A stretch of DNA of 64,000 bases from Candidatus Marinacidobacterales bacterium (GCA_965226495.1 OZ245365.1:4160001-4224000), one strand, 5' to 3'; numbered from the stretch's first letter, positions 14,825-61,769 are shown. Notes: generated by a model not told the origin, from the sequence alone. Numbers and translations are program-made.

Positions 14825-16051
14825 ATGTCTCCTGGGAACAGTCTCTTTTCGGCCCGGTTCTTCGTCATTTGCTCTTTCAATTTTACAGTTTTCCTGTCCG
14901 GTTTCATGCTGTTCCCTACCGGCCCATTTCATATTCTCGACTTAGGGGGCAATAAGTTCACGGCCGGGCTCTTCTTGGCCTTTCTGACCTACGCCTCCGC
15001 ATTTTCGGCTCCCTTCACGGGCGCATTGGCCGACCGAGTCGGCAAACGCCGCGTCCTGATCGTGGCCAGCCTGACTCTGGTGGTCATCTCCGGCTTATAC
15101 GCGGTGAGCCCGACCTATACCATCTTGTTGTCGTTGGTTCCCATTCACGGGTTTTTCTGGTCAGGCCTCCTCGCCGCCTCAGGCGCCTATCTCGTAGACC
15201 AAATCCCCGCCTCCCGTCGCGCCGAAGGACTGGCGTTTTGGGGGCTCGCGACGGTAGCCGCGATCGCCGTCGCACCGCCCCTCGCCTTTTGGCTCTACGA
15301 TTCCGGCGGCTGGCTGTGGGTTTGCATTGCGTCGGCGGTGTTCAACGTCGCCATGGCGGGGATTGCCCTCAACCTAAAGGACGGACCGCACCCAAGTGCG
15401 CCAGGTGAGCCAAGTGAGAAAGCCCGCTTGGAAACGACTTTCGTCGAATGGCGCATTGTCGGAGTTTCTCTAACTCTCTTCCTCTTCAGCTTCGGCTACG
15501 GCGGAATCACGAGCTTCGTGGCCCTTTACGCGCAGGAAAGCGGCACCGTTCCCAAGAGCCTTTACTTCACGGTGCTCGCTATCGTCATCTTGGTCACTCG
15601 CCCACTCCTCGGGCTCTTGGCCGACCGCATCGGACATAAGAGAGTCTTCATTCCCTGTCTTGTGTCCATGGCGGTGGGGCTAGCTCTCCTGGTACCGGGC
15701 GGAACACGTCCTTGGCTTGTGAGCTCTGCGATCTTCTTCGGCATCGGTTTGGGTTCGGCGCTTCCCGTCTACACCGCTTTCATCATGCAACGTGTATCCA
15801 CAGCTCGGCGGGGAGCGGCGTTCGGCGGCATGTTGGCAGCCTTCGACACCGGCATCGGTACCGGCTCAATGACGCTGGGGTATGTCATCGAGGCGACCAA
15901 CTATGGAGTCGCGTTCGGTATCGCGGCCATACTTGCGACGCTGTCGCTTCCCTACTTCATCGTGTCGGAGCGAAGGTTTCTAAGAGAACCAAGAAAGAAG
16001 AAAGAAGAGCCCGGTTATACTACGGTCGAGCCGAAAGGAGAGATCCCATGA
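14825..16051 (+). CDS. MFS transporter
   Basis: GALADRVGKRR and GLLADRIGHKR motif A, multiple TM segments. Confidence 0.9.
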   Translation: MSPGNSLFSARFFVICSFNFTVFLSGFMLFPTGPFHILDLGGNKFTAGLFLAFLTYASAFSAPFTGALADRVGKRRVLIVASLTLVVISGLYAVSPTYTILLSLVPIHGFFWSGLLAASGAYLVDQIPASRRAEGLAFWGLATVAAIAVAPPLAFWLYDSGGWLWVCIASAVFNVAMAGIALNLKDGPHPSAPGEPSEKARLETTFVEWRIVGVSLTLFLFSFGYGGITSFVALYAQESGTVPKSLYFTVLAIVILVTRPLLGLLADRIGHKRVFIPCLVSMAVGLALLVPGGTRPWLVSSAIFFGIGLGSALPVYTAFIMQRVSTARRGAAFGGMLAAFDTGIGTGSMTLGYVIEATNYGVAFGIAAILATLSLPYFIVSERRFLREPRKKKEEPGYTTVEPKGEIP

Positions 16052-17277
16052 CCTCCCTGGACCGCCGCAGTTTCCTCAAAACCACCACCGCCGGATTGGC
16101 CTCATTGGCAGCTGCCCGCGGCGAGGCGCGACCGGCCAACTCGGCCAACTCGTCCAATGATGACCCCCTCGGAGTACGCGCGGAGTTCCCGATCACCAAG
16201 GCCCAGGCCTATCTCAATACCGCTTCTTCGGGTCCCTTTCCCCGTGCGGTGAAAGAGGCAGCCTTGGCGTTCGTGGAGGAAAAAACCCTACGGCCGACCC
16301 CCGGTAGCCGCCATGAAACCCGAGCAAGAGCCCGAGCCAAGTTCGCCAAGCTCTTCGGCGCCAAAGAGGAAGAAGTGGCCTTCCTCTATTCCACAAGCGA
16401 CGGGGAAAATCTGGTAGCCCGCGGCCTCGACCTGCAGGCAGGCGATAACGTCGTGATCGACGAGCTTCATTTCATCACCAGCTTCGTACTCTTTCGCCAG
16501 CTCCAGAAGGAAAAAGGAATCGAGCTACGCGTGGTGCCACAAAGGAAAGGGCGTTCCGAGATCGAAGACTTCGAGGCGCGCATCGATCGACGCACGCGAC
16601 TCGTTTCCGTGGCGTGGGTCTCGAACCGCAACGGCTATCGACACAACATCCGCGCCCTCGCCGACCTCGCTCACGCCCACGACGCGTTGCTGTATGCCGA
16701 TGCTATCCAAGCGTTCGGCACTTTTCCGATGCGACTGCGCCAAGAAGGCGTGGATTTCGCGACCGGCAATTCGTACAAGTGGATCTACGCCGGCTATGGA
16801 GTCGCACCCTTTTTCATCCGCGAAGAGCATCTCGACCGCATCCGACCGGATCGCTACGGTCATGCCCAAGTGGCGGAGTCACTCCCCGACTATCAATACC
16901 GACTGCAGAAGACGGCTCAGAAGTTCGAGTACGCGAACCCGGCCTACGGTCCCCTGTATCAGCTCGATGCCGCCCTTTCTTTACTCGAGGAAGTTGGGCT
17001 CGACCGCATCGAAGCCCACGGCGTGGCGCTGGCCTCCGAGCTTCGCGCGGGAGTGAACAAGCTCGGATTCGAGGTATGGACCCCCCCGAACAACGCCTCG
17101 CCGATCGTAACGTTCCCACACGGACAAAAACCCGCGGCCTTGCGGCGTCTTCTGGAAAAGGAGGCGGTGGTCGTCACGCTTCCCGAGAAGGAAACACACA
17201 TACGAGCCGCGATGGGCATGTTCAACAACCAGAGCGACATCAATCGACTCTTGAAGGTTCTCGAGAGAATCGCTTAG
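16048..17277 (+). CDS. Tat-exported class V aminotransferase-fold PLP enzyme
   Basis: ATG 16048 after AAGGAG; DRRSFLK twin-arginine; YLNTASSGP, DAIQAFG, SYKW. Confidence 0.88.
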   Translation: MTSLDRRSFLKTTTAGLASLAAARGEARPANSANSSNDDPLGVRAEFPITKAQAYLNTASSGPFPRAVKEAALAFVEEKTLRPTPGSRHETRARARAKFAKLFGAKEEEVAFLYSTSDGENLVARGLDLQAGDNVVIDELHFITSFVLFRQLQKEKGIELRVVPQRKGRSEIEDFEARIDRRTRLVSVAWVSNRNGYRHNIRALADLAHAHDALLYADAIQAFGTFPMRLRQEGVDFATGNSYKWIYAGYGVAPFFIREEHLDRIRPDRYGHAQVAESLPDYQYRLQKTAQKFEYANPAYGPLYQLDAALSLLEEVGLDRIEAHGVALASELRAGVNKLGFEVWTPPNNASPIVTFPHGQKPAALRRLLEKEAVVVTLPEKETHIRAAMGMFNNQSDINRLLKVLERIA

Positions 17278-17298: not shown

Positions 17299-17760
17299 AT
17301 GAAACCATGGTCTTTCAAACAACTCGCCATTGGAGCGGCGCTGGGCGGATTGCTCACCGTATCCGCTGGGTTCCAGAAGTCTGAGGCGCCGCGGTACATC
17401 ACCTTGCCCGAGCGCACCGATGATCGGCCTTACAGCAATGCCGTGCTCGTGGGCGACACGCTCTATCTTTCGGGAGCGATAGGGATCGATCCGAAGACCG
17501 GCAAACCGCCGGCGGACGTCAAAGAGGAAGTCAAGATCGTCATGGATAGCATGAAGCGGCGGCTCGAAATGGTGGGAATGACGATGGACGATCTGGTAAG
17601 CGTCCAGGTCTTTTGCCCCAACCTCGAGCTCTACGACGAGTTCAATGCCGTCTACCGAACGTACTTCAAAGAGCACTTCCCGGCCCGGGGATTCATCGGC
17701 TCCGGTCCCCTCTTGGCCGAAAGCAATTTCGAAGTCATGGGGATCGCCGTCAAGCGCTAG
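17299..17760 (+). CDS. RidA/YjgF family protein with signal peptide
   Basis: PYSNAVLVGDTLYLSG, FNAVY..YF..FPAR; hydrophobic N-terminal extension. Confidence 0.9.
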   Translation: MKPWSFKQLAIGAALGGLLTVSAGFQKSEAPRYITLPERTDDRPYSNAVLVGDTLYLSGAIGIDPKTGKPPADVKEEVKIVMDSMKRRLEMVGMTMDDLVSVQVFCPNLELYDEFNAVYRTYFKEHFPARGFIGSGPLLAESNFEVMGIAVKR

Positions 17761-22204: not shown

Positions 22205-23344
22205 TTATCTCAAGCTCTGCGCCGCTTCCACCATGACTTGAAGCTTGCGAAACGCTATCTCGGAGCTAGCGATGGGACGGTTCGAGAAAGTACCGAAGCC
22301 GCAGTCCGGGTTGAGGAAGATGCTTTCCGCAGGATAATGCGCCAGCGCGCCCTCGACGCTGCGGCGGATGGTTTCAGGAGATTCCATTTCGTCCGTGCGC
22401 GGATTGACTACTCCGAGACCCAGCTCCTTGCCATCGAACGGGAGGACGTCGCCCGCTCGCTCGGTGGCGTATTCTAGGACGAGCTGTCGCGCGTCCATCC
22501 GACCCAGACTCGACCGCAATGGATGGTAGCTCCCGCGCAAAAGCGTCGACTCGTCCCGGCTCCAGTTCCCGCGGCAAACGTGAACACCGGTACGCACGTT
22601 GTCAAACCCTTCGAGCACTCGGTTGATCAGTGTGGTGGCGAACTCCAACTCTTCTTCTGGATCCTGGCGCGCGGCTAGCGCCGCGCACATGAACGTTCGC
22701 GTCTGACCTTGGGTAAATACGAGCTCCGTCAATACCGGCTCGTCGAGCTGAATGAAGCTGGCGCCGGCCGCAATCAGGTCCTCGATCTCCTCTCTTAGCA
22801 TCGCCACGACATCTTCCGCCAGCAACTCCTTTGTGGAATAAACGCCTCGGGTGATTTCCTTGACGAACATCGAGCGCGTGAGAAGGTACGGCCCGGGAAG
22901 CGGCACCTTGATGGGTTTGTTGGTATGTTTTTTCAAGAACGCGAGCTCGTTCAGAGCCAGTGACTCGCGGCGACGAATTTTCCCCACGCAGCTCGGATTG
23001 CTGAGCGAGTAAGCAGGCACGTCCAAAGTCTGCAAAATCTTCTCGAAACCGGCCCGGTCCTCGACGACTTCCGCCAACTCGGCAAGAGTCATGAGCCGAA
23101 CGCCCTCGAGCTTTTCGGCGACGAACGAATAGAAGTTATCCCGCCGTTGCTCGCCGTCGGTCACGATGTCCACGCCGGCTTCCTCTTGCTGGCGAAGAAC
23201 TTCCAAGACCGCCTTGTCGGCGGCGAGATCGAACTCCTCCAGAGGAAGTCGACCGAGGCGCTTCAGTTTCTGCGCCTTCAATAGCGCGGGCGAGCGCGGC
23301 CAGCTCCCCACGGTTGTGACGGGGAACAGCGGTAGCTCGGTCAT
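22205..23344 (-). CDS. Single-barrel cobalamin-independent methionine synthase family protein
   Basis: VGSWPR, TDGEQRR, IQLDEP, Zn ligands HVC and NPDCG. Confidence 0.9.
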   Translation of the reverse strand: MTELPLFPVTTVGSWPRSPALLKAQKLKRLGRLPLEEFDLAADKAVLEVLRQQEEAGVDIVTDGEQRRDNFYSFVAEKLEGVRLMTLAELAEVVEDRAGFEKILQTLDVPAYSLSNPSCVGKIRRRESLALNELAFLKKHTNKPIKVPLPGPYLLTRSMFVKEITRGVYSTKELLAEDVVAMLREEIEDLIAAGASFIQLDEPVLTELVFTQGQTRTFMCAALAARQDPEEELEFATTLINRVLEGFDNVRTGVHVCRGNWSRDESTLLRGSYHPLRSSLGRMDARQLVLEYATERAGDVLPFDGKELGLGVVNPRTDEMESPETIRRSVEGALAHYPAESIFLNPDCGFGTFSNRPIASSEIAFRKLQVMVEAAQSLR

Positions 23345-24165
23345 CCGCGAGTCTTCTCGAAGAAGGATTGCTTGTCGACCGCGTCAGATAAAGGTTCGAA
23401 CCCGCTCGTGCGCGCGGGCAGCCACTCTTTCAGGCCTTCGAGATCCATCATCTCGCGATGCTTTGGATTGTCGTAGCTCATGGAGAAGAGCACGTCCAGC
23501 CATTTCTTCTCTCGATCCGGAGGAAAGTCCTCACGTACTGTAAAGACACAATGGTCGAAGCGATCGGTCGAGGCTAGGATCTCGAACTCGCTAGCGTTGA
23601 CAGTGCCGTCCTTGGTCCACCCGTCCCAGTTCAGATCGATCATGGCCGAGCAGTGCGCCTCCCCTTTCTCGAGACACCTGAAGGCCTCGAGCTCACCACC
23701 CACGTGGTCGCCATGCTTTCCTACGAGAACGTCGAACCGCTTGACGTGAAAATCGTCTCCCGCCGTCAGGCCGTGGCGCTCTAGAAAACCCAGGGGGATC
23801 AATGTGGCCTGAGGCGAGTCTTTGGCTCCAACCGCCACTGTCTTGCCGCTCAAGTCCGCTACCTTGCCGACCCCGGAACCCTTGCGAACGACCAGATGCG
23901 TTACGCGGTCCCGGTCGGAATCCCGCATCGCGATGGCACGACAGGTACCACCGGAGGCCCGCTGAGAGTCGAGCCACGCGAGGGGCGAGTTCCAGGCCAT
24001 CTCGATGTGTCCTTTGACGAGCGCATCCACCTGCAGCTCGTAGTTCGTGTAGAACACGACATCCATGGGACAGCCGTGCTCCTCGAAGAACTCGCGGATG
24101 ATGTCCCAGATGACCGAGACTTTCGGATCGTACAAAACGGCGCCGACGATCACCGGCTTACTCAT
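23341..24165 (-). CDS. PhnD/SsuA-like substrate-binding-fold protein without signal peptide
   Basis: YELQVDAL..AWNSPLAW, DLSGKTVAVGAKDS; start overlaps upstream stop (TAATG). Confidence 0.75.
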   Translation of the reverse strand: MSKPVIVGAVLYDPKVSVIWDIIREFFEEHGCPMDVVFYTNYELQVDALVKGHIEMAWNSPLAWLDSQRASGGTCRAIAMRDSDRDRVTHLVVRKGSGVGKVADLSGKTVAVGAKDSPQATLIPLGFLERHGLTAGDDFHVKRFDVLVGKHGDHVGGELEAFRCLEKGEAHCSAMIDLNWDGWTKDGTVNASEFEILASTDRFDHCVFTVREDFPPDREKKWLDVLFSMSYDNPKHREMMDLEGLKEWLPARTSGFEPLSDAVDKQSFFEKTRG

Positions 24166-25316
24166 TAGAAGAGCTCCATGCCGCAAAGGGCGCGGCCGAT
24201 GAACTCGTGCGCCACATCGGTCGTCGGAGCCATGATGCCGGAGGCCCTAGCGTCTCGGAAATGCCGCTCGACGGCGACGCGGCGGCCGAACGCGGCTCCG
24301 CCACATGCCCGCATACCGATCTCAGTAACCGCCATCGCGGTTTCCGAAGCCGCCGCCTTCGCTTCAAGGACCAGAAGTTGAGTGACTTCGTTCGGCTGCT
24401 CGACCGAATCGATGACGCTGACGAGATGCGCGCGGCCCCGGTCGGTTTCGATACGCATCCGCGCGAGTCGGGCCCTCAGGTTGGGAAGCTCCGATAACGT
24501 CGACCCGAGGTGTTCGAATCGGCTGGACGTCAAGTGTTTCGTGGTGGCCTGGACGGCCGCCTCGGCGATTCCCACTGAGATGGCAGCATTCCCAATCTGA
24601 AACCACGGAAGCACGACCCCCAGCATGGTATCGAATCCCTTGCCCTCGTCGGAGAGCGCACGATCGGAAGGGATTGAGACGCGCTCGAGCTTCATGGGAG
24701 CGCTCGCGTTTCCTCTCATGCCGTGGGCGTCCCACGAGCCCGAGACATCTAAGCCCGCATCTTCAGCGAGCACGAGGTACAACATGCTCTCGGTAGGGGC
24801 GGTGCCGTCCGCCCAACCGGTGGAGACCACGTAGCCCGCGGCTATTCCTGCCGACGTAACGAATGACTTGTCCGCAGTGATATGAATTTGACCGTTCACT
24901 TTCTCCGCGCGGCTCACCGGGGCCCAGAAATGACTGCGGGAGCCTCGCTCGCTCCAGGCCAAGGTGGAGAGATGATCGCCTTTTGCCGCCGCTTCCAGAT
25001 ATTTAGCGGTGGTCTTCGATTTCGCGTTGTAGCAAGCGATGCCGCACAAATGCATCATGTAAATCATTCCGGTAGACGCGCAACGCTGCGAGAACTCATC
25101 GAGCACCGCACATCCGACACGGGGGCCTTGCCCCATGCCTCCATATTCCTCAGGTACATTCAGGCCAAGAAAACCGGCATCGCCGAGTGCACGGATCCCT
25201 TCGGTGGGAAAGGTGCTTTCCGAGTCTACGCGGGACGCATGGGGTGCAAGACTCTCGTCGGCCAGCTTTGATGCGCGGTCGATGATTTTCTTTTCTTCTG
25301 AATTCAAGCGGTACAT
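24165..25316 (-). CDS. Acyl-CoA dehydrogenase-fold flavoprotein
   Basis: VPEEYGGMG, LAWSERG, KSFVTSA, GMRGNAS, ERHFRDARA; start ATG 25316 after GGAGG. Confidence 0.88.
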   Translation of the reverse strand: MYRLNSEEKKIIDRASKLADESLAPHASRVDSESTFPTEGIRALGDAGFLGLNVPEEYGGMGQGPRVGCAVLDEFSQRCASTGMIYMMHLCGIACYNAKSKTTAKYLEAAAKGDHLSTLAWSERGSRSHFWAPVSRAEKVNGQIHITADKSFVTSAGIAAGYVVSTGWADGTAPTESMLYLVLAEDAGLDVSGSWDAHGMRGNASAPMKLERVSIPSDRALSDEGKGFDTMLGVVLPWFQIGNAAISVGIAEAAVQATTKHLTSSRFEHLGSTLSELPNLRARLARMRIETDRGRAHLVSVIDSVEQPNEVTQLLVLEAKAAASETAMAVTEIGMRACGGAAFGRRVAVERHFRDARASGIMAPTTDVAHEFIGRALCGMELF

Positions 25317-25348
25317 GGGTTTAGACTCCTCCGGTAGGCGGCCAACTA

Positions 25349-25798
25349 TTAGAGCACAACTTTCAACGTGAGCTCCAAATCCACCACCGGCCGCAAGGTG
25401 CGCACCAGAGGCGATTTGGCCAACACTTCGTCCCAAACACGGCGTACCTTTTCTTCTCCGTCGACAGAGCTCGCATACACCTGGATGCGGATCCTTTCGA
25501 TTCCGGGATGGCCTTCTTCCCCGACGACGTCTAGGTACGTCAGCGGGTTGTTGACCGCACCGTGGACCACCGCCTCGACGTTATCCACTTCGACCCGGCG
25601 TTTTTTTGCGAGAGTGAAAAGACCGTTCGCAACATCCGACCCGAGGGCTCCAAGCACGTACTCGAGAGAGGTGATGTGCGGATATTCCTGATCGAACTGT
25701 AGTGGCGCGCCGACCGCGAATTGGTGTTTCCTAACGAAAACGGTCGCCAGGTTCTTGTCTCTGGCGCCGACTCTCAGGTTCCACTCGAAAGGTTCCAT
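25349..25798 (-). CDS. OsmC-like protein lacking cysteines
   Basis: EYVLGALGSD..A..R.VEVD.VE..V.G and SPLVRTL pattern follows OsmC/Ohr. Confidence 0.7.
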   Translation of the reverse strand: MEPFEWNLRVGARDKNLATVFVRKHQFAVGAPLQFDQEYPHITSLEYVLGALGSDVANGLFTLAKKRRVEVDNVEAVVHGAVNNPLTYLDVVGEEGHPGIERIRIQVYASSVDGEEKVRRVWDEVLAKSPLVRTLRPVVDLELTLKVVL

Positions 25799-59812: not shown

Positions 59813-60955
59813 TCAGCTGTTGAAGATTTCGCGGGCGATGATAATGCGTTGGATCTGGCTGGTTCCTTCGTAGATCTGATAAATCTTGGCGTCACGGTAG
59901 AGCTTTTCGACCGGGTACTCTTTGCTGAATCCGTTTCCGCCGAACACCTGAACGGCGTCGGTGGCAACTTTGACCGCCGTATCGGCGGCGAAGAGCTTTG
60001 CGAAGGCAGCTTGCTTTGTGTTCCGGCGACCCTGGTCGATGGCCCAACCGGATTGCCAAACCAGAAGCCTCGCCGCTTCAACGGCGCACGCCATGTCGGC
60101 GATCATGAAGCTGATCCCCTGATGTTTGTAGATCGGGACGCCGAAAGTCTCTCTCTCCTTGGCATAGTTCACGGCGTGCTCGTAGGCCGAGCGGGCGAGC
60201 CCCACCGCAGCAGCTGCGACCACCGGTCGCGAGTGATCGAAAGCAGCCATCGCTACTTTCCAACCCGCACCCTCTTCACCCAAACGATTGCCAACCGGCA
60301 CCTTGACGTCTTCAAAACTGACCGCGCGCGTGTCGGAACAACGCTGGCCCATGTTGTTTTCCTTTTTGCCCAGCACGATGCCATCTGAGTCACGCGGAAC
60401 CACGAAAGCGCTCATGCCCCGGTAACCCTGATCCGGGTCCGTGTAGGCGAGCACGAAATACCAGCTGGCGACACCACCGTTGGTAATCCACATCTTGCTG
60501 CCGTTGAGGACGTAATCGTCGCCGTGTCGTTTGGCGGTGGTGCGGATGCCCTGAACGTCTGAACCGGCCCCCGGCTCGGTAACGCAGTACGCGGTGAAGA
60601 GGAATTCATCGATCGTCGGCGTGAGCCACTTCTTTTTTTGCTCGTCGTTGCCCGCGACGATGATCGGGCACTCCGCTAGAGTATTCGCCTCCATCGCGGT
60701 GCTGACTCCGGTGCACGCCCAGGCAGTCTCCTCGGCGATGAGGCATCCCTCGAGAACTCCCAGACCCAATCCCCCGTACTCCTCGGGAATGTGCGAATTC
60801 ATGAGCCCGAGCTCCCAGGCCTTCTGACAAATCTCACGCGGGTACTCGGCAGTTTCATCGAGACGTGCAGCGTGGGGAGCGATCTCTTTTTCGGCAAACT
60901 CGTGGGCGAGATCGCAAAGCTGCTTCTGTTCGTCGCTGAGCGTAAAGTCGATCAT
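59813..60955 (-). CDS. Acyl-CoA dehydrogenase
   Basis: [30 protein letters not shown]. Confidence 0.95.
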
Positions 60956-60983
60956 GGTCTCTCTCCAACAGGTTGATTGGCTC

Positions 60984-61769
60984 TCATTTTCCCTTGAACC
61001 GAGGCGGGCGCTTTTCCGCAAATGCGGTGAACCCTTCAAGGGAGTCCTCGGACTCGAAGCAGGCCGTTTGGGCCTCCTCCTCGTAATCTAGCATCTGATC
61101 GAGGGAGGCCCCTACCGCATCGTAGATAGCCTCTTTTGCGAACCGGACCGCTTGAGGTGGTGCGGCGACCAGCTCGCGCGCCAGCTCCAACACCCGATCG
61201 GGAAACTCGTCGTCCTCGACGACCCGATTGACCAAACCCACGCGCAGAGCTTCCTCCGCGCTCAGCATGCGTCCGGTGAAGATCATCTCGCAGGCCATGC
61301 CGGTGCCGACCAAACGAGGGAGGAAAAAACTACCACCCCAATCGGGATGGAGCCCCACCCGCGAGAAGGTCGCGCCCAGGCGAGCGTCGCTCGATGCAAT
61401 ACGGAGATCACAGGCAAGGGCGAGACTCAAACCCGCACCCGCTGCAACCCCGTTGATGGCGGCGACCGTCGGAAGCGGCAATTCACGCAGGAGCTCGACC
61501 ACACGGCGGCCAGATTCCATGAGCTGCCTCAGCGCCTCGGTGTCGCCCCGGCGCCGAAGCTCCGTCATGACCTTCACGTCGCCTCCGCTGCAAAACGCCT
61601 TTCCGGCGCCGGTGATGACCAGGACGCGGGCCCGGCCGAGTGACTTGGCGATGGCCTGATGAAGATCATCCCGCATGGTTCCGGAGAGGGCGTTGAGCTC
61701 CTCGGGACGATCCAGAGTCACGGTGGCGATATCGTCCGATACTTCGAACAGGACGTGCTCCCAGCTCAT
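60984..61769 (-). CDS. Enoyl-CoA hydratase/isomerase family protein
   Basis: [24 protein letters not shown]. Confidence 0.92.

Follow-up and report, generated by a model that had tools for sequence, protein, structure and literature searches.

What kind of chemistry would call for an OsmC-like protein, an acyl-CoA dehydrogenase (ACAD)-fold flavoprotein, a solute-binding-protein (SBP)-fold protein of the PtxB/PhnD type and a single-barrel MetE-like enzyme to be encoded side by side? The question is raised by positions 22205..25798 of a 64,000-nucleotide stretch of Candidatus Marinacidobacterales bacterium (GCA_965226495.1 OZ245365.1:4160001-4224000), the whole of which is referred to here as the window. 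The four genes lie head to tail on one strand, joined in transcription order by a 32-nucleotide gap, a TAATG and an ATGA; this is the arrangement given in a preliminary description made from the sequence alone, and its coordinates have been confirmed. The answer put forward here, tentatively and with confidence somewhat short of even, is that the four genes encode one cytoplasmic enzyme system for handling chalcogen (selenium and/or sulfur), and that the cluster is not an ordinary methionine synthase, dehydrogenase, transporter or peroxidase. The genes and the residues on which the argument turns are as follows.

25349..25798, minus strand: OsmC-like gene (149 residues; Pfam OsmC)
25317..25348, minus strand: spacer of 32 nucleotides between the OsmC-like and ACAD-fold genes, holding a GGAGGAG ribosome-binding motif
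24165..25316, minus strand: ACAD-fold flavoprotein gene (383 residues, start MYRLN; Pfam ACAD N, M and C)
24228-24230, minus strand: Ala363 codon of the ACAD-fold gene, at the catalytic Glu position by alignment with the canonical paralogue
23341..24165, minus strand: gene for the cytoplasmic PtxB/PhnD-fold (SBP-fold) protein (274 residues, start MSKPV; Pfam Phosphonate-bd)
23548-23553, minus strand: His205-Cys206 codons of the SBP-fold gene, picked out by conservation in relatives
22205..23344, minus strand: single-barrel MetE-like Zn enzyme gene (379 residues; Pfam Meth_synt_2)
22988..22990, minus strand: Cys119 codon (NPSCVG) of the MetE-like gene, the second extra Cys and candidate resolving partner of residue 220
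22685..22687, minus strand: Cys220 codon of the MetE-like gene, within the insert TRTFMCAALA; candidate catalytic residue, selenocysteine (Sec) in some relatives
22301..22582, minus strand: span of the Zn ligands of the MetE-like gene, His255 (22580-22582), Cys257 (22574-22576), Glu291 (22472-22474) and Cys348 (22301-22303), codons checked

Whether the four genes belong together was addressed by a genome scan with the SBP-fold alignment, one genome per species (more than 569 confirmed matches, 80 loci kept), and a metagenome scan with the MetE-like alignment (564 confirmed matches, 80 loci kept). All four genes are present in 67 of the 80 well-flanked loci, defined as those with at least 1.3 kb of flank on each side (49 of 58 from genomes, 18 of 22 from metagenomes), and in 92 of the 160 loci overall when incomplete loci are counted. 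The 92 four-gene loci show four orders, OsmC-ACAD-SBP-MetE (67), ACAD-OsmC-SBP-MetE (15), ACAD-SBP-MetE-OsmC (6) and OsmC-SBP-MetE-ACAD (4), with the ACAD gene on the opposite strand in two; the SBP gene stands immediately 5' of the MetE-like gene in every order, at a gap of at most 60 nucleotides in 123 of the 139 loci that have both genes, and no additional conserved gene surrounds the cluster across the 160 loci. Because of this co-presence, of the SBP-before-MetE order and of the lack of any other conserved neighbour, the four genes are one conserved, self-contained unit and not a chance assembly. By record titles the carriers span at least 14 phyla, including Nitrososphaerota archaea and Bacillota; they come from soil, water and gut and include ammonia-oxidising-type archaea, the cluster proteins being 60-78% identical across phyla. 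The gene-neighbourhood search across phyla that the preliminary description had called for therefore finds synteny conserved, and its idea of a common pathway does not fall on that ground, since the four genes co-occur across phyla.

The distribution is wide and thin. Of 301 genomes sampled from the window's phylum, 10 have an SBP-like gene and 5 the MetE-like type; in a sample of 201 genomes from the phylum of G306 (G, L and C numbers denote genomes, loci and contigs of this analysis) the MetE-like type occurs once, in the seed genome. A search for actinobacterial Rv1680-type loci by way of G311 gave none above the cut-off and returned only loci already in the window-phylum sample. Placed on a 76-row SBP tree, the phylum labels call for 27 changes against a minimum of 13, with Acidobacteriota, Chloroflexota and Planctomycetota scattered, which fits some horizontal spread of the cluster, the labels of metagenome-assembled genomes (MAGs) being imperfect.

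The MetE-like protein has a single Meth_synt_2 domain (115 bits) and lacks the N-terminal folate-binding barrel, and no methionine-synthase cut-off is reached among the NCBIfam models, with PRK04326 best at 186 (below 406) and TIGR01371 at 102.7 (below 930). The residues that bind Zn (H255, C257, E291 and C348) and those that contact homocysteine (S14, E65 and D201) align to Thermotoga maritima MetE and do not vary among 32 sequences; compared with the T. maritima enzyme, the TRTFMC segment is inserted. The earlier picture of a single-barrel homologue with intact Zn ligands and an extra TRTFMCAALA segment is thereby borne out. Structure prediction, another check that had been proposed, gave an AlphaFold model of mean predicted local distance difference test (pLDDT) score 88, whose best fold match is MesD (3RPD; template-modelling (TM) score 0.73/0.81, identity 24%).

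A folate- and cobalamin-independent methionine synthase or thiol alkyltransferase, in which the SBP-fold protein and the flavoprotein present an unusual donor to Zn-activated homocysteine in the manner of MesD/MesX, is the explanation that this conserved site most directly invites, and is considered unlikely. The invariance of the Zn ligands and of the three homocysteine-contacting residues speaks for it, as do the adjacency of egtD, whose product takes three S-adenosylmethionine (SAM) each, in three loci, and the failure to see either MetH or full-length MetE (E <= 1e-100) in two of five carrier genomes, both of them MAGs. The closest structural match also belongs on this side, since Price et al. 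2021 (PMC7857596) describe MesD as a core methionine synthase dependent on a partner protein, MesX. Against it, full-length MetH is encoded in the window's genome and in three of the five other carriers tested, the cluster is rare in both phylum samples, and a search of the window and 13 loci (seven from Bacillota) for structured RNAs found no methionine-type riboswitch, with no SAM, B12 or T-box element and only one tRNA and one tRNA-Sec recovered. MesX (PF08908, DUF1852) gave no match in the window's genome, nor in any of 14 control genomes, and is not among the cluster neighbours at related loci. A donor model also leaves the Cys119/Cys220 pair, the exchange of Cys for Sec and the rhodanese and TusA partners described below unexplained.

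Cys220 is present in 60 of 60 relatives and Cys119 in 59 of 60, and both are invariant in the 32-sequence alignment, which reaches Bacillota and archaea. By alignment the two residues lie in family-specific insertions beside strands that bear homocysteine ligands, and the insertions would thus sit at the open face of the barrel, where MetE takes its second substrate. The loop around Cys220 is modelled with a pLDDT of only 55-63, and is read as mobile for that reason. The extra segment pointed out earlier is not a passive insert: the Cys it carries is invariant and is replaced by Sec in relatives. An in-frame TGA occupies the Cys220-aligned codon in four MAG loci and in one genome, and similarity continues unbroken past it in all five genes.

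L022:7503, MAG locus: Sec-form MetE-like gene
L023:8797, MAG locus: Sec-form MetE-like gene
L030:8950, MAG locus: Sec-form MetE-like gene
L048:3159, MAG locus: Sec-form MetE-like gene
L110 (G041:C9, about 190129-191274): Sec-form MetE-like gene of genome G041

A hairpin of the form ACCCGC-loop-GCGGGU follows 15 nucleotides 3' of the TGA in all four TGA loci that were folded and is not found in the window's own form, which has TGC (Cys). SelD is encoded in five of five Verrucomicrobiota-type genomes tested and in G041. Exchange of Sec for Cys marks a catalytic residue, usually one that is redox-active or carries chalcogen, and an invariant Cys220 with Sec in relatives points to redox or chalcogen-transfer chemistry rather than to simple alkyl transfer. 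The Sec forms of the MetE-like family are a candidate new selenoprotein family; the main text of a 2026 selenoproteome review (PMC13188914) has no entry for MetE, homocysteine or PF01717. A separate observation concerns a distant MetE-like paralogue in the window's own genome (G000:C1:1239919-1240929, minus strand; L092, L102), in which an in-frame TGA falls at the Zn-ligand Cys of H-x-C (HLURGN), a candidate case of selenocysteine as a Zn ligand.

The three remaining proteins each retain a fold and lack the residues or partners that would place them in its usual role. For the ACAD-fold protein, the Pfam N, M and C domains all score above their cut-offs and ACAD structures match at E 1e-35; it is nevertheless predicted not to be a dehydrogenase, the catalytic Glu being missing family-wide. 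GIMAPT had been reported where the canonical paralogue beginning at 59813 has IYEGT, and pairwise alignment agrees, setting IMAPT against IYEGT of 59813..61039 and Ala363 in place of Glu. Within the MAPT motif, Ala and Pro each reach at least 95% conservation among 64 relatives, and the motif is kept in six of six two-gene variants. Ordinary dehydrogenase activity through an alternative Glu, raised earlier as the counter-possibility, finds no residue to rest on: by eye, in the paralogue alignment, the IVD-type position holds Phe/Gln and no Glu. The best-scoring family is NF049984 (Rv1679 family; 421.4 bits, below its cut-off of 600), and 3-sulfinopropanoyl-CoA desulfinase (129.7, below 600), SfnB (103, below 431) and DszC (38, below 850) also fall short. 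The earlier suggestion of a DszC-type flavin monooxygenase is weakened because the full cluster occurs in MAGs labelled as anaerobic lineages, namely Oribacterium, Peptoniphilus, Tissierellia and Clostridiales, all of them anaerobes. As to the paralogue itself, the stretch 59813-61769 on the minus strand of the window joins this canonical acyl-CoA dehydrogenase to a downstream open reading frame (ORF) that is enoyl-CoA hydratase-like by sequence.

The SBP-fold protein matches Pfam Phosphonate-bd at 108 bits, scores 247.5 bits with NF049985 (Rv1680 family; cut-off 400) and 35 bits with TIGR03431 (cut-off 261), and has PtxB as its nearest match both in sequence and among solved folds; in Foldseek PtxB is best for the model (TM up to 0.62), which is itself of moderate confidence (mean pLDDT 71), and Thi5 is also among the fold matches. 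Database relatives exceed 7,000 (E <= 1e-10), the top 120 being 265-289 residues long and 69-78% identical, and look-alikes in the ESM Atlas carry generic phosphonate-binding names only. As had been claimed, the protein has neither a signal peptide nor ATP-binding cassette (ABC) genes nearby: the sequence opens directly at strand 1, likewise in 12 of 12 aligned relatives; no ABC gene is found among the flanking ORFs of at least 80 residues scanned over about 16.0-31.1 kb of the window; and ABC genes do not recur in the neighbour survey of related SBP-fold loci. The anion-binding STSS of PtxB has become DSPQ, and the protein carries in addition a GKHGDH insert and an invariant His205-Cys206, with Cys206 in 76 of 76 relatives. 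Because of the missing signal peptide and ABC genes, the change from STSS to DSPQ and the invariant His-Cys, the SBP-fold protein is unlikely to be a transport component.

In the OsmC-like protein the fold is present (Pfam PF02566, 39.2 bits against a cut-off of 27.5) and the peroxidatic and resolving Cys are missing, for the protein contains no Cys at all; the same observation in the preliminary description extends to the family, no column of an alignment of 65 relatives reaching 30% Cys. A Cys does occur in the corresponding helix of a rhodanese-linked OsmC paralogue and of a TusA-OsmC fusion. In the rhodanese and TusA variants, too, the MetE-like gene has an OsmC-like gene with it, and the OsmC-fold protein is the MetE-like enzyme's partner.

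These variants divide the cluster into two modules whose partners can change. One module, the MetE-like gene with the OsmC-like gene, is also found without the ACAD and SBP genes: G014 has rhodanese, MetE-like and OsmC-like genes, and G041 a TusA-OsmC fusion beside its Sec-form MetE-like gene; of the four MAG loci with the Sec form, three (L023, L030 and L048) have a TusA-OsmC gene, Pfam-confirmed in two, and one of the two longer fused MetE-like proteins found joins TusA to the MetE-like domain. A second, paralogous cluster lies outside the window in the same genome (G000:C1:3257328-3260488; L101 5329-8489, plus strand). Its genes encode, in order, a CMD/AhpD-like protein of 151 residues, a tandem rhodanese of 272 with the active-site Cys loop, a MetE-like protein of 390 and an OsmC-like protein of 175 that has Cys; this MetE-like paralogue keeps the RTFMC insert and has Val at position 119.

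The ACAD/SBP pair in turn occurs without a MetE-like gene in six of seven further genomes of the window's phylum. It adjoins an Rv1681-family radical SAM gene in L202 (6614-7648, minus strand; 421 bits, cut-off 380) and, in L198:4734-6050(-), L199:6750-7991(+) and L200:4731-6011(-), a gene for a homologous protein of ~420 residues with two E..H motifs, followed in L200 by an ATP-grasp ligase. One of the three ~420-residue proteins has a weak AurF match and two have no Pfam match; their N-terminus looks TusA-like on our own reading of the sequence, made without a database match. The motifs MAPT, SE.GSRSHFW, GKHGD, His-Cys and EGLK.W are common to the MetE-less pairs and the window's pair. The cluster had been presented as a candidate undescribed pathway, and as a gene pair the ACAD/SBP part is not undescribed: the NCBI-curated Rv1679/Rv1680 families are its best matches, so it is a recognised but unstudied unit, represented in the accessible literature by proteomic, genomic and structure-based listings with no functional study found in print; searches on fadE16/moeX gave nothing relevant among the matches listed. 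No description of the four-gene cluster was found in the literature on Rv1679/Rv1680, MetE-type enzymes, selenoproteins and sen genes.

These pairings are what a pathway of small-molecule or cofactor biosynthesis would predict, the flavoprotein/SBP pair acting on one precursor and a third enzyme (MetE-like with OsmC, radical SAM or a TusA-like diiron protein) varying a later step. The association of the pair with the radical SAM gene or the ~420-residue E..H protein, the ATP-grasp ligase in L200 and the shared MAPT, GKHGD and His-Cys motifs are in keeping with such a scheme, and SBP-fold enzymes exist, Thi5 being among the fold matches. Around the four-gene form, however, conservation extends to no carrier protein, ligase or exporter, and the scheme is compatible with chalcogen handling, which would become just one case among several; as a separate explanation it is rated as rather improbable.

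What ties the unit to selenium and sulfur is the company that it keeps. True selD adjoins the cluster in L014, L026, L031 and L186 (349-408 bits, cut-off 125), with a partial copy in L036; L026 also has tRNA-Sec and L186 selA. In L033, L127 and L149, senA (496-523 bits, cut-off 420), senB and egtD lie directly 3' of the MetE-like gene, and selD (senC) is not seen among the annotated flanking ORFs of these three. Looked at individually, the sen genes (L033:8023-11338, L127:5026-8327 and L149:4911-8443) come straight after an OsmC-SBP-MetE trio with no ACAD gene nearby, and in L149 senB is fused to egtD. L033 and L127 have a betaine-type ABC transporter upstream, and L033 also encodes a disulfide reductase. 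Genes for rhodanese, TusA, DsrE-like, thioredoxin-like and DJ-1 proteins are found inside or beside other loci. SelD is encoded in 60 of 66 cluster-bearing genomes (the window's genome, then two of five, five of five, four of five and 48 of 50), a tally that leaves out the genomes of 15 of the 80 loci. The background is 233 of 301 in the window's phylum, 74 of 101 in that of G314, 60 of 101 in that of G304 and 6 of 101, seed included, in that of G306 (Verrucomicrobiota by title). Verrucomicrobiota-labelled carriers have SelD in seven of seven cases (L009, L013, L017, L022, L034, L042 and L048) against the 6 of 101 in that phylum's sample. EgtD co-occurrence is uninformative, with the gene in seven of ten carriers and in 142 of the 301 genomes sampled from the phylum; the window-phylum SelD and EgtD tallies and the G314-phylum SelD tally include genomes flagged unpublished (G048, G145, G023 and G753). 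A sulfur or thiol pathway had been suggested for the cluster at the outset, and that part gains from this sulfur-type context of rhodanese, TusA, DsrE, Sec/Cys exchange, selD and sen; the methyl or alkyl donor that went with it is neither supported nor excluded, nothing pointing to one.

Redox repair would use the same residues differently: the MetE-like pocket would bind free methionine sulfoxide, a selenoxide or a similar oxidised S/Se amino acid at Zn, Cys/Sec220 would reduce it as methionine sulfoxide reductases do and Cys119 resolve, with the OsmC-fold protein, the flavoprotein and thiol partners recycling the enzyme. MsrA and MsrB likewise combine a Sec/Cys catalytic residue with a second conserved Cys, the pattern seen here, and the neighbours of the cluster include thioredoxin-like, AhpD/CMD-like, DJ-1/PfpI and pyridine-nucleotide disulfide reductase genes, with genes for the antioxidant selenoneine adjoining in three loci. 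MsrA is listed as a selenoprotein in the main text of the selenoproteome review (PMC13188914). Rhodanese, TusA and DsrE are sulfur carriers, however, and not typical reductants in this setting, the OsmC-fold partner has no cysteines, and repair would leave the adjacency of selD unexplained and the SBP-fold protein without a role; we regard it as quite improbable.

For the reaction of the four-gene system, sulfur or selenium transfer or redox around Zn together with a Cys/Sec MetE-like enzyme is the most likely, and the chalcogen-handling model builds here on gene linkage, residue conservation, Sec/Cys exchange, neighbouring genes and the SelD association, all directly observed; the substrates, the direction in which the chalcogen moves and all the chemistry that follows are what we infer. 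One module would comprise the MetE-like enzyme and the Cys-less OsmC-fold protein, with the Zn site and a homocysteine- or methionine-type pocket retained and a mobile loop with Cys/Sec220, together with Cys119, standing where MetE takes its methyl donor. Residue 220 might carry or attack sulfur or selenium (as persulfide, perselenide or selenenylsulfide), exchanging that atom with the substrate at Zn, with Cys119 as the proposed resolving partner. The other module, the Glu-less flavoprotein and the PtxB-fold protein with His-Cys, probably captures and activates a source of sulfur or selenium and passes it on, since it stands where rhodanese or TusA stands in the variants. Selenite, sulfite, thiosulfate, selenophosphate or CoA persulfide may be guessed at as that source; the oxyanions are candidates because a PtxB-like pocket suits small tetrahedral or pyramidal oxyanions, and ACAD folds are known to bind CoA persulfide.

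Several observations weigh against this model and keep it tentative. The fully conserved Zn and homocysteine site suits methyl or alkyl transfer equally well. The genes selD or sen adjoin only 8 of the 160 loci, and SelD was not found in three of three Nitrososphaerota MAGs, in one Saccharimonadaceae-labelled MAG or in the genomes of L019 and L071; selenium cannot be obligatory if six carriers, all three of these archaeal MAGs among them, do without a detectable SelD. The SelD association is strong in Verrucomicrobiota and uninformative in the three other phyla, where the background is high, and related genomes are not independent. The ACAD/SBP pair, finally, occurs without a MetE-like gene, and its role may be more general than chalcogen supply, because it also stands beside a radical SAM or a TusA-like diiron gene.

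A more specific proposal, possible and yet doubtful, is that the cluster is an unrecognised trait of selenium utilisation or salvage, in which the PtxB-fold protein would bind a selenium oxyanion or selenophosphate, the flavoprotein would process it and the MetE-like enzyme would form or cleave a C-Se (or C-S) bond in a homocysteine-type amino acid. If so, the cluster would connect free selenium with SelD, with selenoneine synthesis or with a new selenometabolite, and the enzyme would be the first MetE-fold selenotransferase, its Sec forms making up a new selenoprotein family.

Around the cluster, the flanking ORFs in about 16.0-31.1 kb of the window include a cyclase, an Nramp-like protein, UbiD, a luciferase-like protein, a kinase, RidA, an aminotransferase, a lipoprotein-like protein and GYD. 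The 3.6-kb stretch is near-identical in 19 sequencing runs, and the 20 runs with any part of it come from nine studies. A single contig of 246 nucleotides from a metatranscriptome library, identical to window positions 25139-25384, runs from the end of the OsmC-like gene across the spacer into the start of the ACAD-fold gene; it is a weak hint of co-transcription of the two genes, weak because such libraries can contain DNA. Elsewhere in the window, a class-V aminotransferase of cysteine-desulfurase-like fold with an apparent twin-arginine signal (RRSFLK) is encoded at 16051-17277 on the plus strand, followed by a RidA-family gene at 17299-17760. At about 17.8-18.2 kb and 27.8-28.0 kb, a peptide-like pattern recurs in ORF translations of several frames (…PSPQRGEGEIERRR… twice near 17.9-18.1 kb; …SPYPLPGGEG… and …SPYPLPKGEG… within the Nramp-like ORF at 27.8-28.0 kb), which suggests copies of a short repeated DNA element.

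The routing of selenium to SelD and small molecules and the roles of non-folate MetE relatives are largely open fields, and the cluster bears on both. In the module a MetE-fold Zn enzyme is brought together with a catalytic Cys/Sec residue, sulfur-relay proteins and the selD and sen genes; it is best placed among MetE-type enzymes that need partners, and there is a real chance that it is a new selenium or sulfur trait. The module also offers a first route to the function of the Rv1679/Rv1680-type pair, a pair conserved in actinobacteria, and contributes a candidate new selenoprotein family; four small soluble proteins make the question directly testable.

Among known systems, the closest to the MetE-like protein is MesD/MesX, which has in common with it a single MetE-type barrel, the Zn site, the homocysteine pocket, the absence of a folate domain and dependence on a partner. 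At 24% identity to MesD, the window's family differs in adding Cys119 and Cys220 (Sec) and in pairing with SBP-, ACAD- and OsmC-fold proteins, rhodanese or TusA, and the main text of PMC7857596 makes no mention of OsmC, acyl-CoA dehydrogenase or phosphonate. With the C-terminal barrel of T. maritima MetE (1T7L/1XDJ) the Zn ligands His, Cys, Glu and Cys and the homocysteine residues Ser, Glu and Asp align, whereas the N-terminal barrel is lacking and insertions are present at about 83-115 and 209-220.

Sulfur and selenium relays (rhodanese, TusA and DsrE; the N-terminal Cys/Sec of SelD) share with the MetE-like family the exchange of Cys and Sec at a carrier residue, and these relays and senABC are physically linked to the cluster through rhodanese, TusA, DsrE, selD, senA and senB. 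We know of no MetE-fold protein described in such relays. The main text of the sen preprint does not mention methionine synthase, OsmC, acyl-CoA dehydrogenase or phosphonate, the accessible text of the thiohistidine paper does not mention the cluster genes, and no paper was found in the literature on TusA, OsmC, methionine synthase, rhodanese and persulfide together.

The periplasmic oxyanion binders PtxB, PhnD, HtxB and AioX have their fold and Pfam family in common with the SBP-fold protein, which differs in lacking the signal peptide, the ABC partners and STSS, and in having GKHGDH and His-Cys. Glu-less ACAD-fold enzymes such as the desulfinase, DszC and SfnB share with the flavoprotein a fold without the catalytic Glu, and several of them use sulfur compounds; the flavoprotein scores far below their cut-offs, and the presence of the cluster in MAGs from anaerobic lineages speaks against an obligate oxygenase. 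Nearest of all to the ACAD/SBP pair are Rv1679, Rv1680 and Rv1681 (NF049984, NF049985 and NF049973), in which a Glu-less ACAD is likewise followed by a signal-less SBP-like protein and motifs are held in common; the window's proteins score below the cut-offs of both pair families, and their third partner is a MetE-like enzyme with its OsmC-like protein in place of the radical SAM.

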